A stretch of 64,000 bases of DNA from Streptosporangiales bacterium (GTDB lineage: Bacteria > Actinomycetota > Actinomycetes > Streptosporangiales > WHST01). Where the stretch lies: NCBI GenBank assembly GCA_009379955.1, contig WHST01000013.1, positions 8,941-72,940 of the forward strand, written 5' to 3'. The position numbers and the translations under genes are program-made. Below, one piece after another: positions 5,666 to 44,516 of this stretch. The stretch's first letter is position 1, and every line of letters begins with the position of its first letter. Below the pieces are notes generated by a model, which was not told the DNA's origin, did no database searches, and worked only from the letters and a program-made list of their open reading frames with translations.

Positions 5666-6466
5666 CTACGACGCCTCGGGCCGCACCAACCACGGGGTCA
5701 GGCGTGCCTCCACGCGCTTCAGCAGCGTGTAGAGGGCGAAGCCGACGGCCATCAGCAGGACGACGGGGACCAGCGACTCCGCCATGTCGAAGCGCCGGGA
5801 GAACCGCAGGATCAACGACCCGAGACCGGTGACGGCCGTCGAGAACTCCGCGACCACGACCGCGATGAGCGCCCGGCCGACGGCGAGCCGCAGGCCCGTG
5901 ACGATGTACGGGAGCGCGCCGGGGATGAGGACGTCGCGCCACGCCTGCAGCTCGGTCGAGCAGTACGACCTGGCGAGCTCGTCGAGGTCGCGCGGGACGC
6001 TGCGCACGCCGGTGGCGGCGTTGAGCGCCACCGGGAAGAACGCGAACATCGCGACGATGACCACCTTGGCCTGCAGGCCGAAGCCCAGGGCCACGATGAG
6101 CACCGGGATCACCGCGACGAGCGGGGTCGCGTAGAGCGCGGAGATGTACGGGTCGAGGACGACATCGACGGAACGGAACCGGCCGACCAGGATGCCGACG
6201 AGCAGGCCCACCGCCGTGCCGCAGCCGATGCCGAGGACGAAGACGAGCATGCTCGACGACGCCGCGGACAGCAGCTCACCGCGCGCGACGAGGTCGACCG
6301 CGGCGACCGCGACCTCGGCGGGCCCGACGATCAGCGGGCTCTCGGAGAACCACGAGAAGACCTGCCAGACGACCGGGATGAGCAACAGCCCTGCCCACCA
6401 CAGCAGGCGTCGCTGGGTCGCGCTCTCGGCGCGGCGGCGCGGTCGTACCGCGACCTGCTGCGTCAT
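5666..6466 (-). CDS. ABC transporter permease (NitT/TauT nitrate/sulfonate/taurine type)
   Basis: 266-aa, roughly 6-TM ORF with a BPD_transp_1-type layout. Its ATG overlaps the stop of the upstream mini-ORF (ATGA). Confidence 0.85.
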   Translation of the reverse strand: MTQQVAVRPRRRAESATQRRLLWWAGLLLIPVVWQVFSWFSESPLIVGPAEVAVAAVDLVARGELLSAASSSMLVFVLGIGCGTAVGLLVGILVGRFRSVDVVLDPYISALYATPLVAVIPVLIVALGFGLQAKVVIVAMFAFFPVALNAATGVRSVPRDLDELARSYCSTELQAWRDVLIPGALPYIVTGLRLAVGRALIAVVVAEFSTAVTGLGSLILRFSRRFDMAESLVPVVLLMAVGFALYTLLKRVEARLTPWLVRPEAS

Positions 6467-6576
6467 GAGCCGCCCTCCAAAGTGAGCATCGCAGCGAGGA
6501 CGGAGCCCGCACGCCCGATGCTGAGCGCGCCTGAGCGAGGAGCGGAGCGGAGGAGGGCGGCGGGAGGCACAGTCAT
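6463..6576 (-). repeat. MIRU-like 114-nt intergenic mini-ORF repeat, copy 1
   Basis: The ATG at 6576 overlaps the TGA of the upstream permease (ATGA). The TGA at 6463-6465 overlaps the ATG of the downstream permease (ATGA). It encodes MTVPPAALLRSAPRSGALSIGRAGSVLAAMLTLEGGS, about 24/37 identical to the copy at 44152-44265. Terminal inverted repeats are GCCGCCCTCC (6469-6478) and GGAGGGCGGC (6552-6561). Confidence 0.6.
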
Positions 6577-7340
6577 GGTCCCGCCTGCCAGGGCGAGAGC
6601 CGGCGCTGGAACCACTTGAGGAGGCCCGCGACCGCGATCCCGGTGACGGCGAGCACCACCACAGGCCCGAGCGCGGCGGCGATGTCGAACTGGTTGGAGT
6701 ACTTGATGATCAGGTAGCCGAAGCCGCTGGCGCCCGCGTAGAAGTCGGCGAGCACGGCGCCGACGAGCGCGTGGACGAGACCGAGCCGGAGTCCGGTCAT
6801 GACCGCGGGCAGCGCGCCGGGGACGATGACGTCGCGCCAGACCGTCCACTCCCTGGCGCAGTACGACCGCGCGAGCTCGAAGAGGTCGGCGTCGACCGTG
6901 CGGACGCCCACCGTGGTGTTGATGAGCACGGGCAGCACCGTGAACAGGAAGACGATGATGACCTTCGCCGTGGTGTTGAAGCCGACGATCACCAGGATGA
7001 ACGGGATCAGTGCGACGAGCGGCGTGGTGTACAGGATGTTGACCGGCGCCTCGGTCAGCCAGTAGAGGCGACGGAACCTTCCGACGAGCAACCCCATCGG
7101 CACGCCCACGAGCACGCCGAACCCCGCGCCGATGCCGAGGATGTGGGCCGTCGGCTTCAGGAAGGCGAGGAACTCGCCCGCGCGTACCGACTCGGCGATG
7201 CCGGCGCCGATCTTGTCCGGCGTCGCGAGGAACAGCCTGCTCGTCGTGTTCGCGAGGACGTACCACGCGACGAGGAGCAGGGCGGCGAAGCAGATCCGCA
7301 GGGTCCACAGCCGGCGCCTCGACATGCGCCGGTCAGTCAC
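6573..7340 (-). CDS. ABC transporter permease (NitT/TauT type)
   Basis: 255-aa multi-TM ORF, paralogous to 5666-6466. It overlaps the ATPase gene by 8 nt. Confidence 0.85.
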   Translation of the reverse strand: MTDRRMSRRRLWTLRICFAALLLVAWYVLANTTSRLFLATPDKIGAGIAESVRAGEFLAFLKPTAHILGIGAGFGVLVGVPMGLLVGRFRRLYWLTEAPVNILYTTPLVALIPFILVIVGFNTTAKVIIVFLFTVLPVLINTTVGVRTVDADLFELARSYCAREWTVWRDVIVPGALPAVMTGLRLGLVHALVGAVLADFYAGASGFGYLIIKYSNQFDIAAALGPVVVLAVTGIAVAGLLKWFQRRLSPWQAGP

Positions 7341-8118
7341 CCGAGATCCCCCCGGCCGCGTGCTCGGGAGCGGGCTCCTGGCGCAGCAGCGACCACATCC
7401 GCGCCCTCAGCTCGGTGAACCTCGGGTCGAGCCTGATCCGCGGAGCGTCGCGCGGGCGCTCGAACGGGATGGCGATGTCGTCGACGATCCGGCCGGGCCC
7501 CGCCTGCATCACGATGACCCGGTCGGACAGCACGATCGCCTCGTCGATGGCGTGCGTGACGAACAGGACGGTCTTGCGGTCGGTGTGCCAGATGCGCAGC
7601 AGCTCCTCCTGCATCTGCTCGCGCGTCTGCGCGTCGAGCGCGCCGAACGGCTCGTCCATCAGCAGCAGCGCGGGGTCGATGGCAAGGGCCCTGGCCAGAC
7701 CCACGCGCTGCTGCATGCCACCGGAGAGCTGGTACGGATACTTCTTCTCCCAGCCCTCGAGGCCGACCATCGCGATGTAGCGCCCGACCTGCTCGCGCGC
7801 GGCCTTCCTGCCGCCACCGCGCAGCCGCACGCCGTACGCGACGTTGTCCTCGACGGTGCGCCACGGCAGCAGCCGGAAGTTCTGGAACACCACGGCCATG
7901 TTCGGGCGCGGACCCGTCACCTCCTCGTCGCTGACCCGCAACGAGCCCGCAGTGGGGTCTTCGAGCCCGGCGACCAGGCGCAGCAGCGTGGTCTTGCCGC
8001 AACCGCTCGGGCCGAGGATCGACACGAACTCGTCGTCGGCGACGTCGAGGTGCAGGTCGTCGAAGACCCGCAGGGCCCCGAAGTGCTTCGCGAGCCCGTC
8101 GATCGCCACACTCGCCAC
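7333..8118 (-). CDS. ABC transporter ATP-binding protein (NitT/TauT type)
   Basis: Walker A GPSGCGKTT, signature LSGGMQQRV, Walker B LLLMDEPF. Confidence 0.9.
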   Translation of the reverse strand: MASVAIDGLAKHFGALRVFDDLHLDVADDEFVSILGPSGCGKTTLLRLVAGLEDPTAGSLRVSDEEVTGPRPNMAVVFQNFRLLPWRTVEDNVAYGVRLRGGGRKAAREQVGRYIAMVGLEGWEKKYPYQLSGGMQQRVGLARALAIDPALLLMDEPFGALDAQTREQMQEELLRIWHTDRKTVLFVTHAIDEAIVLSDRVIVMQAGPGRIVDDIAIPFERPRDAPRIRLDPRFTELRARMWSLLRQEPAPEHAAGGISGD

Positions 8119-12760: not shown

Positions 12761-12846
12761 GTCCACGTTGATCACGTCAACGTGATCAACAGGGACTTCA
12801 CCTCGTGCCGGGACGAGGTGCAGTCCACGTTCACGAGGTGAGGTGC
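12761..12846. repeat. double-hairpin dispersed repeat, copy 1 (fills a convergent intergenic gap; probable bidirectional terminator)
   Basis: Hairpin 1: GTTGATCACG (12767-12776), loop TCAA, CGTGATCAAC (12781-12790). Hairpin 2: GGACTTCACCTCGT (12793-12806), 6-nt loop, ACGAGGTGCAGTCC (12813-12826), with 1 mismatch. The roughly 63-nt core is about 92% identical to 30921-30983. Confidence 0.6.
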
Positions 12847-30839: not shown

Positions 30840-30914
30840 CCCCGCCGCGGGCGTGACCGCACCGTGACGTGACCGGACCCTCGCGCGCAGTGCCCCGTCC
30901 GCGCCTAGGCCCCT

Positions 30915-31010
30915 CCCTGCTGATCACGTCAACGTGATCAGCAGGGACTTCACCTCGTGCAGGGACGAGGTGAAGTCCACGTTCGCGACGTTAACGTGAT
31001 CGACAGGGAC
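30915..31010. repeat. double-hairpin dispersed repeat, copy 2 (about 1.5 units, perfect stems) in a divergent promoter region
   Basis: Hairpin 1: CCCTGCTGATCACG (30915-30928), loop TCAA, CGTGATCAGCAGGG (30933-30946). Hairpin 2: GGACTTCACCTCGT (30945-30958), 6-nt loop, ACGAGGTGAAGTCC (30965-30978). A partial second unit ACGTTAACGTGATCGACAGGGAC follows. Confidence 0.6.
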
Positions 31011-43543: not shown

Positions 43544-43894
43544 TCTTTCTCCTGTTCTGTCTGCCGTCCCCCTCCGGCCACACGAGACGGTACCTCGGGC
43601 GCGTCGGTACTCGACGCACCGGGGCCCGGATTCCTGGCAACGTTTCGCGGACGGGGGTGTGTTCCATGATGACCCGGCGACAGGCGCGGAGCCCGCGAAA
43701 TGGTCCGGATGGCGAGACGTGGTCGTCCCGCTACACGAGCGGAAGCCAGGGGGTGCCCGTCCAGCGTACTGCCTGGGCCGCGGCAGGTCCCGCCCGCTCC
43801 CGTTACTGTGGACGGCGGACGTGATCAGAGCCACGCGCCCCGGACGAGATGCGCGCCGTACCCGGACGGCCAAGACGACGCGCGGGGAGGATCG

Positions 43895-44155
43895 ATGGCG
43901 CAGGCCGTCCAGATCGTCGGCGCACTGCTCGTGCTCTCCGGGTTCGTCCTGGCACAGCTCGACGTGCTCGACCAGCGCTCGTACACCTATCTCGTGCCCA
44001 ACCTCGCCGGCTCGGCCGCGATGACCGTGACCGGCACGCTCTCCGGGGACTGGGGCTTCGTCTTCCTCGAGGGCGTCTGGGCGATCGTCTCGGTCGTCGG
44101 CATCGTGCAGCGACTGCGCGGAGTCGATCCGAGACGTACGGAGGACGGCTCGTGA
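43895..44155 (+). CDS. small (86 aa) 3-TM membrane protein
   Basis: ATG at 43895 after GGGGAGG. Paralogous to 44262-44516, with shared WGFV.L.GVW.IV. Confidence 0.5.
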   Translation: MAQAVQIVGALLVLSGFVLAQLDVLDQRSYTYLVPNLAGSAAMTVTGTLSGDWGFVFLEGVWAIVSVVGIVQRLRGVDPRRTEDGS

Positions 44156-44265
44156 CTGTGCACCCCGCCGCCCTCCGCCGCTCCGCTCCTCACTCACTGA
44201 CGGCGACCGCCGGACCTGTGGGTTGCGTTCTCGCTGCGATGCTCACTCTGGAGGACGGCTCGTGA
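44152..44265 (+). repeat. MIRU-like 114-nt intergenic mini-ORF repeat, copy 2
   Basis: The GTG at 44152 overlaps the upstream TGA (GTGA). The TGA at 44263-44265 overlaps the downstream GTG (GTGA). It encodes VTVHPAALRRSAPHSLTATAGPVGCVLAAMLTLEDGS. Inverted repeats are GCCGCCCTCC (44167-44176) and GGAGGACGGC (44250-44259). Confidence 0.6.
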
Positions 44266-44516
44266 TTATTGCGCTCGAGTTCGTCGGCGCGCTCGGCATC
44301 CTCGTGCCCTTCGCGCTGTTCCAGCTGGGCAGGACGTCGCAGCACTCGCGGCTCTACCTCTGGCTGAACCTGTTCGGGTCGAGCCTGCTCACCATCGTGG
44401 CAGTACTCCACCACCAGTGGGGCTTCGTGATCCTGCAGGGCGTCTGGACCATCGTGACGACCTGGAGCATCCTCAGGCAGCTCAGGCGCCCCCGTCCGGG
44501 GTCGGAGGAGCGGTAG
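44262..44516 (+). CDS. small (84 aa) 3-TM membrane protein, tandem paralog
   Basis: GTG at 44262 after GGAGGACGG. Begins VIIALEFVGALGILVPFALFQLG... Confidence 0.5.
   Translation: MIIALEFVGALGILVPFALFQLGRTSQHSRLYLWLNLFGSSLLTIVAVLHHQWGFVILQGVWTIVTTWSILRQLRRPRPGSEER

Follow-up and report, generated by a model that had tools for sequence, protein, structure and literature searches.

The window analysed here, a 64,000-nt stretch of contig WHST01000013.1 from a Streptosporangiales bacterium (GC content 70.5%), carries two copies of a short repeat, each bridging the stop codon of one gene and the start codon of the next by a small open reading frame (mini-ORF). Copy 1 lies between two ABC permease genes and copy 2 between two genes for CBU_0592-family membrane proteins, and in both cases the mini-ORF starts and stops within an RTGA tetranucleotide (R, purine) shared with the neighbouring gene. 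With a probability of about 0.75, we interpret the repeat as a non-autonomous element that was inserted at the RTGA overlap of translationally coupled genes, duplicated this tetranucleotide in the process, and carries a mini-ORF and a stem that would keep the flanking genes coupled. The stem is formed by two complementary arms, of which the 3' one includes a Shine-Dalgarno (SD) sequence and the 5' one its complement (anti-SD). The parts of the two copies are as follows.

6463-6576, minus strand: copy 1, the complete element with both ATGA, consisting of a 110-nt insertion plus the shared ATGA; mini-ORF MTVPPAALLRSAPRSGALSIGRAGSVLAAMLTLEGGS followed by a stop codon.
6573-6576, minus strand: 5' ATGA of copy 1; its TGA ends the upstream permease gene (6573-7340) and its ATG begins the mini-ORF.
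6552-6561, minus strand: 5' stem arm of copy 1, GCCGCCCTCC, which holds the anti-SD CCTCC and covers mini-ORF codons 6-9.
6533-6551, minus strand: 5' half of the conserved core of copy 1, TCCGCTCCGCTCCTCGCTC.
6499-6532, minus strand: variable 34-nt centre of copy 1, missing from the canonical 80-83-nt units of the family.
6481-6498, minus strand: conserved core 18-mer of copy 1, CTCGCTGCGATGCTCACT.
6469-6478, minus strand: 3' stem arm of copy 1, GGAGGGCGGC; its GGAGG (6474-6478) is the SD, 7 nt before the ATG of the downstream permease gene.
6463-6466, minus strand: 3' ATGA of copy 1; its TGA ends the mini-ORF and its ATG begins the downstream permease gene (5666-6466).
44152-44265, plus strand: copy 2, the complete element with both GTGA; mini-ORF VTVHPAALRRSAPHSLTATAGPVGCVLAAMLTLEDGS followed by a stop codon.
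44167-44176, plus strand: 5' stem arm of copy 2, GCCGCCCTCC.
44230-44247, plus strand: core 18-mer of copy 2, CTCGCTGCGATGCTCACT.
44250-44259, plus strand: 3' stem arm of copy 2, GGAGGACGGC, with the SD GGAGG at 44250-44254 and a single C-A mismatch to the 5' arm.

Both copies are 114 nt long and hold a 37-codon open frame bounded by RTGA at each end, and their peptides agree at 24 of 37 positions, just as an earlier sequence-only reading of the window had described; the spacing between the permease genes, given there as 107 nt, measures 106 nt. The copies lie on opposite DNA strands, each sense to its own flanking genes. Without gaps they are identical at 90 of 114 nucleotides (79%), divided into 39/44 for the 5' part, 18/34 for the centre and 33/36 for the 3' part, which bears out the conserved flanks and diverged centre of that reading. 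They also align far better than shuffled sequence (global alignment z = 13.6 against 1000 dinucleotide shuffles), and the chance expectation of their conserved blocks in the window is 0. The complementary arms that had been noticed at the element ends are perfect in copy 1 and interrupted by one mismatch in copy 2. Promoter and terminator scans detected no such sites inside either copy. As a separate observation, the variable centre of copy 1 (6499-6532, minus strand) contains AGCATCG, complementary to CGATGCT of the conserved 18-mer, and the predicted minimum-energy fold of this copy pairs the two; copy 2 has no equivalent.

To judge from its empty counterparts, copy 1 is a recent insertion, placed exactly onto the stop/start overlap of two operon genes. 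It is missing from five independent metagenome contigs (L147-L151), whose identity to the window is ~94% across 1.1 kb to one side of the site and 0.8 kb to the other: the alignment breaks exactly at the element, the permease genes overlap directly (...GGGACCATGACGCAG..., ...GGCAGGCGGGACCATGACGCAGG...), and in the window 110 nucleotides are added, with ATGA (formally CATGAC) at either side. The downstream permease itself has a 97% identical homologue (P0001). At the site of copy 2, relatives without the element (L154-L156) have flanks ~86-94% identical to those of the window, and their two CBU_0592 genes overlap by GTGA; a direct overlap, in the form of ATGA, is what the sequence-only reading had predicted for orthologous operons free of the element. 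Outgroups at ~80% identity are empty too, both at the copy 1 site (L152 and L153) and at the copy 2 site (L157 and L158, with direct gene overlap). Because these more distant relatives also lack the element, insertion in the lineage of the window is more parsimonious than repeated precise loss; and because the close relatives show the direct ATGA or GTGA overlap and the distant ones are empty too, both copies are insertions that duplicated RTGA.

The duplication left a trace in the family at large, whose members of the window type are referred to below as class F. The RTGA purine is identical at both ends in 26 of 30 class F loci, as expected if the target tetranucleotide is duplicated. The duplicated target may extend beyond RTGA. 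Immediately after the 5' RTGA, bases agree with the beginning of the downstream gene to a greater extent than in cross-controls (1.87 versus 0.81, p < 2e-4), whereas copy 1, for which the empty site is known, shows only CATGAC as the duplicated sequence. A perfect 16-nt direct repeat, GGAGGACGGCTCGTGA, borders copy 2 (44140-44155 and 44250-44265, plus strand); its first member forms the last codons of the upstream CBU_0592 gene, and its second is the 3' end of the element. In the nearest relative, the empty site has GGAGGCGCGCGCGTGA at this place, and because GGAGGACGGCTCGTGA differs from it, the last four codons of that gene look element-like. Possible causes of the repeat are a longer target duplication, conversion by the 3' end of the element, or the remnant of a second unit. 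Some loci of the family show a sharing of sequence with the downstream gene: in L113 (element at ~7600-7760 of the reverse complement) PyrF begins with MTVPPA..., encoded by the same codons as in the element, and in L112 the downstream gene begins with ATGACTGAGC, as does its element. Such loci hint that the N-terminus of a target gene can be derived from the 5' sequence of the element, or that a longer stretch of target can be duplicated.

Further copies, which had been predicted from the pair in the window, are abundant. A scan for the core 18-mer CTCGCTGCGATGCTCACT, with one genome per species, returned at least 120 loci, nearly all in Actinomycetota and spread across many families, and a pattern specific for class F added 26 further metagenome loci. 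Among the matches listed, the hosts are Blastococcus, Modestobacter, Geodermatophilus (Geodermatophilaceae being represented), Jatrophihabitans, Nakamurella, Pseudonocardiales, Micromonosporaceae, Streptosporangiales and many unclassified metagenome-assembled genomes (MAGs) of Actinomycetota, along with two Mycobacteriales MAGs and one contig labelled Mycobacterium sp. (L087). The L087 copy closely resembles those of Blastococcus capsensis, and three contigs of a MAG labelled Oscillatoria nigro-viridis (L026, L056 and L097) are of high GC content and hold typical actinobacterial copies; all four labels probably reflect binning or labelling contamination and not the true host range. At least three copies occur in one 10-Mb genome (L017, L083 and L112). 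For the finished genome OY970235.1, the count is at least 3. The 18-mer has 0 matches in viral contigs, and a blastn comparison of the canonical unit with 72,556 plasmids gave no match.

A nearly invariant core of ~45 nt, CGCTCCGCTCCTCGCTCG-(3-6 nt)-CTCGCTGCGATGCTCACTC, is common to the matches, and its orientation relative to the neighbouring genes divides them into two classes. With coding strands called from codon-position GC content, the matches listed for which both flanks could be called comprise 51 loci with both genes antisense to the core, 11 with both sense (including the two window copies) and 5 with divergent or convergent genes, so that co-oriented gene pairs flank 62 of these 67 loci. 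Class F, the window type, has its core in sense to the genes, and class R has it antisense; among the matches listed class R is about five times commoner. The expectation that all copies would sit in sense orientation at RTGA junctions thus holds for the class F subtype. On the sense strand, class R reads RTGAGTGAGCATCGCAGCGAG...GAGCGAGGAGCGGAGCGA...RTGA, in units of 53-83 nt that often form arrays (examples are L099:1367-1490, L025:3580-3760 and L014:1130-1313, and an extra module, GCTCTTCGCGCGAGCGCTCATCGC, is sometimes present); under a strict test, mini-ORFs running from RTGA to RTGA occur in 26 of 60 class R units.

The canonical class F unit measures 80-87 nt, with a period of 80-83 nt and the layout RTGA-C(C/T)GTGC..-CC-(5' arm, e.g. 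GGCGGCCTCC)-TCCGCTCCGCTCCTCGCTCG..-CTCGCTGCGATGCTCACT-NN-(3' arm, e.g. GGAGGCCGCC)-TC-RTGA. With a period of 110 nt, both window copies are long forms, in which the poorly conserved 34-nt centre separates the halves of the core; L133 and L113 carry different inserts at the same position. Class F units can be arranged head to tail in arrays of 2-5, neighbouring units sharing an RTGA, and their number varies at a given locus: 80-nt units number two in L142 (5195-5360) and five in L144 (745-1090), and at another locus 83-nt units number two in L131 (368-480) and one in L137 (7735-7760). The window copies are single units outside any array. The genes directly downstream of class F copies include rpsH (S8), nuoJ, nuoL, cysD, pyrF, trpE and those for a MaoC dehydratase and ABC ATPases, which places the elements inside classic operons.

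Judged by its sequence properties, the element is not an ordinary gene. Its frame is conserved: 47 of 50 class F copies run from RTGA to an in-frame RTGA, and all ten length classes (77, 80, 83, 86, 89, 92, 98, 107, 110 and 131 nt) equal 2 modulo 3. The first RTG and the last TGA have thus stayed in one frame through every insertion or deletion. It is this length rule that we rely on; the open frame as such was dropped as evidence of coding, because the other frames are commonly open as well and an open frame alone is uninformative. A functional small protein of 27-37 aa could account for the retained frame and for the recurrence of the peptide segments LRSAPRS and LAAMLT. We consider such a protein highly improbable, since the element does not share the codon bias of its host (GC content at third codon positions ~0.70, compared to 0.93-0.97 for its neighbours), nucleotide conservation of the core extends to every codon position, and wherever the stem arms covary the peptide changes too; the tandem arrays of 2-5 copies and the absence of copies from close relatives argue in the same direction. 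The mini-ORF peptide has no NCBIfam match, and a comparison with 1.84 billion protein representatives, of low power for a 37-aa query, found nothing similar.

The second conserved feature is a 10-bp stem, in which the 5' CCUCC arm pairs with the 3' GGAGG; in class F the 3' arm is always GGAGG-like and always located 7 nt before the downstream RTG. In an alignment of 18 sequences, 91% of stem cells are paired, compared to 79% in shuffles and 35-51% in slid controls. Compensatory changes affect 6 of the 10 stem pairs, a level of covariation reached by 0 of 500 shuffles, and they extend to the SD itself, where the arms read CCCCC/GGGGG in L017 and CTTCC/GGAAG in L016.

Taken together, these features suggest how the element may be tolerated. 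A ribosome that finishes the upstream gene would reinitiate on the mini-ORF at the first RTGA, pass through the element while opening the stem on its way, terminate at the second TGA and resume translation on the downstream gene, aided by the element-borne GGAGG 7 nt before the start; the downstream ribosome-binding site would be exposed only during translation of the mini-ORF. The downstream gene thus probably remains translatable after insertion, by way of the frame and the ribosome-binding site that the element itself brings. If the original coupling is kept in this manner, insertion would be nearly harmless, and so low a cost would explain why copies are tolerated in essential operons. The ~45-nt invariant core is presumably recognised in the copying step, for which the stem may also, or instead, serve as a DNA-level substrate. 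Of the mobile translational-coupling module proposed in the sequence-only reading, mobility is borne out by the filled and empty sites, and coupling is what the frame, the SD and the stem point to.

The same features could instead have been co-opted after insertion, with the stem setting the translation ratio of the flanking genes or responding to temperature or ribosome traffic. An SD located within a conserved stem would suit such a regulator, as would the persistence of copies in dosage-sensitive operons (rpsN-rpsH, nuo, paired permeases). The same sequence is found, however, in unrelated operons and taxa, its presence varies between 94%-identical relatives, and the number of units varies at a single locus; unrelated contexts, patchy presence and unit variation all argue against a selected function specific to the locus, and we regard this explanation as unlikely.

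Several observations weigh against an inserted coupling module as outlined above. Within the 64 kb, an nhmmer profile of the core finds only copies 1 and 2 and no third copy; the 16-nt direct repeat at copy 2 misfits a simple 4-nt duplication; 25-26 of 28 copies are open in the other two frames as well; and the element has been associated with no enzyme. The folding energy of the whole element is no better than that of shuffles (z = -0.07 and +1.24). Finally, the non-Watson-Crick cells of 28 unique arm pairs, read on the sense strand, comprise 7 G-U and 14 A-C; because A-C mismatches outnumber G-U ones, pairing in the sense mRNA is not favoured over pairing in DNA or in the other strand. As a means of discriminating between RNA and DNA, this spectrum gave no support for wobble in the sense RNA. 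The SD-sequestering stem proposed earlier stands as far as the pairing of its arms is concerned, by virtue of their covariation; in mRNA it may act to mask the SD.

The mismatch spectrum also fits a reading in which the stem is chiefly a DNA feature, a hairpin or an inverted repeat that is recognised when the element is copied or inserted, in the style of repetitive extragenic palindromes and their associated transposases (REP/RAYT), of the insertion sequences IS200/IS605 or of miniature inverted-repeat transposable elements (MITEs), the overlap with the SD being secondary. We hold this to be possible, if the less probable course; it does not exclude a coupling role of the mini-ORF. The arms covary, so that their pairing or mutual identity is what is maintained; insertion takes place at a fixed tetranucleotide; and the core hardly varies between actinobacterial orders, which is what a recognition site would show. 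A DNA-level role accounts less readily for a 3' arm that is GGAGG-like and exactly 7 nt from the downstream RTG in every case, for a 5' arm that is not terminal (11 nucleotides of the element precede it), and for class R, which has the same core without obvious self-complementary arms (judged by eye only). Moreover, IS200/IS605 and REP elements are not known to cause a target duplication, and no transposase was found, although no genome-wide search for one was made.

Returning to insertion with retained coupling, the core occurs in at least six actinobacterial orders and in both orientations. We tentatively propose that it could be the site recognised by a widely conserved machinery that copies such elements and sets them at stop/start overlaps. 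The window type would then be a self-contained natural counterpart of a bicistronic-design cassette (mini-ORF, SD and SD-masking stem), harmless in essential operons. In synthetic bicistronic design, as discussed in PMC12548453, the 3' end of a short ORF holds the downstream SD and its stop overlaps the next start, and the translating ribosome unfolds local structure and reaches that start. This is the closest functional analogue by design logic, with the difference that the present element is natural, repeated, inserted and known here from its sequence, whereas the design is engineered.

Among natural repeats, the nearest in layout are mycobacterial interspersed repetitive units (MIRUs), operon repeats of short length with a small ORF that overlaps both neighbours by 4 nt (Supply et al. 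1997, as relayed in PMC12548453). By that account, the present family shares with them repeats of tens of nucleotides within operons in sense orientation, the 4-nt overlap of the mini-ORF with the upstream stop and the downstream start, and head-to-tail arrays of variable unit number (the behaviour of variable-number tandem repeats), the last of these displayed by the family and not by the window copies. MIRU292 of M. avium subsp. paratuberculosis is 53 nt long, and its reverse strand gives an ATGA...ATGA frame (PMC7977185); the family matches it in a unit length of 2 modulo 3, and class R also in layout and in having 53-nt units. The differences are equally distinct: the hosts here are non-mycobacterial Actinomycetota, the C/U-rich core strand is sense in the window type and antisense in MIRU292 and class R, and the covarying 10-bp anti-SD/SD stem with its own GGAGG has, as far as we know, not been described for MIRUs. 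Local alignment to MIRU292, the single MIRU sequence compared, is no better than to dinucleotide shuffles (z -0.2 to 0.7), so that homology is unproven and not claimed; the common motifs CCGCTCCTC and TCGCTGCG and the 53-nt unit length common to class R are suggestive only. The MIRU architecture recognised in the sequence-only reading thus extends to layout, junctions and arrays and stops short of sequence homology to MIRU292.

Other repeat families are more remote. REP and bacterial interspersed mosaic elements (BIMEs), enterobacterial repetitive intergenic consensus (ERIC) sequences and Correia elements (Neisseria miniature insertion sequences, NEMIS) are likewise short and non-autonomous, with inverted-repeat potential and a location in transcribed intergenic regions of operons, but they are not known to be organised as ORFs that link a stop to a start, nor to insert at RTGA overlaps. 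REP are imperfect palindromes of 20-40 nt with a conserved tetranucleotide head and are associated with RAYT, whereas here a non-palindromic core of 46 to ~100 nt lies within a single stem. Rickettsia palindromic elements resemble the present one in preserving the reading frame upon insertion into translated sequence; they join the host protein inside genes, unlike the separate mini-ORF found here between genes. Compared to a MITE, the element has a target duplication (RTGA) and 10-nt complementary arms, but its 5' arm lies 11 nt inside and the arms covary instead of being conserved. Rfam contains no family for the element (window at gathering thresholds; both copies at E up to 10, with noise at E 0.08-10). 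Core 14- to 16-mers of both strands appear in no paper, nor are interspersed repetitive units connected with these genera in any, in a literature that excludes subscription journals. The repeat is thus apparently previously undescribed, widespread in high-GC actinobacteria and of a MIRU-like kind, with an SD-containing stem in addition.

MIRUs, repeats of 40-100 bp, are used worldwide for the typing of tuberculosis strains. To our knowledge, their spread and their tolerance within operons are unexplained, the question of how they move having been open since 1997. The present family extends their design, a repeat that bridges a stop/start overlap by a small frame, to a large set of copies in soil actinobacteria, residing in ribosomal-protein, NADH-dehydrogenase and biosynthetic operons. 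It offers natural test cases for translational coupling and possible typing markers for the host genera. It also calls for caution in genome annotation: an element makes an 'intergenic' spacer longer and can be mistaken for a small gene or for the extension of a gene. If the core is indeed the site of a copying machinery, the family would be the first tractable system for the movement of MIRU-type elements, since filled and empty alleles exist between ~94%-identical genomes.

The genes that flank the two copies in the window are the following.

6573-7340, minus strand: upstream of copy 1, ABC permease (BPD_transp_1).
5666-6466, minus strand: downstream of copy 1, ABC permease (BPD_transp_1) of the NitT/TauT type.
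43895-44155, plus strand: upstream of copy 2, CBU_0592-family membrane protein of 86 aa.
44262-44516, plus strand: downstream of copy 2, CBU_0592-family membrane protein of 84 aa.

The proteins flanking copy 2 are two small paralogous membrane proteins (NF047864 / PF26604), and their genes are directly preceded by a guanidine-III riboswitch (43825-43884; 41.5 bits, against an Rfam gathering score of 36). A gene of the ureohydrolase/agmatinase family and one for an APC-type permease are convergent neighbours of the pair (to 47195), and the arrangement is kept in L154. Riboswitch and neighbours together suggest that the CBU_0592 pair is a guanidine-related exporter. Exact look-ups of proteins encoded in the window returned no record. 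Among named proteins, the nearest to them belong to MAGs of Nocardioidaceae and Propionibacteriales.

The window also has another intergenic repeat, 78 nt long and unrelated to the first, at 12762-12839 and 30914-30991, the two copies being 90% identical. It consists of two adjoining near-perfect hairpins (e.g. CCCTGCTGATCACGTCAACGTGATCAGCAGGG) directly past a stop codon, which give it the look of a palindromic element, REP-like or terminator-like.

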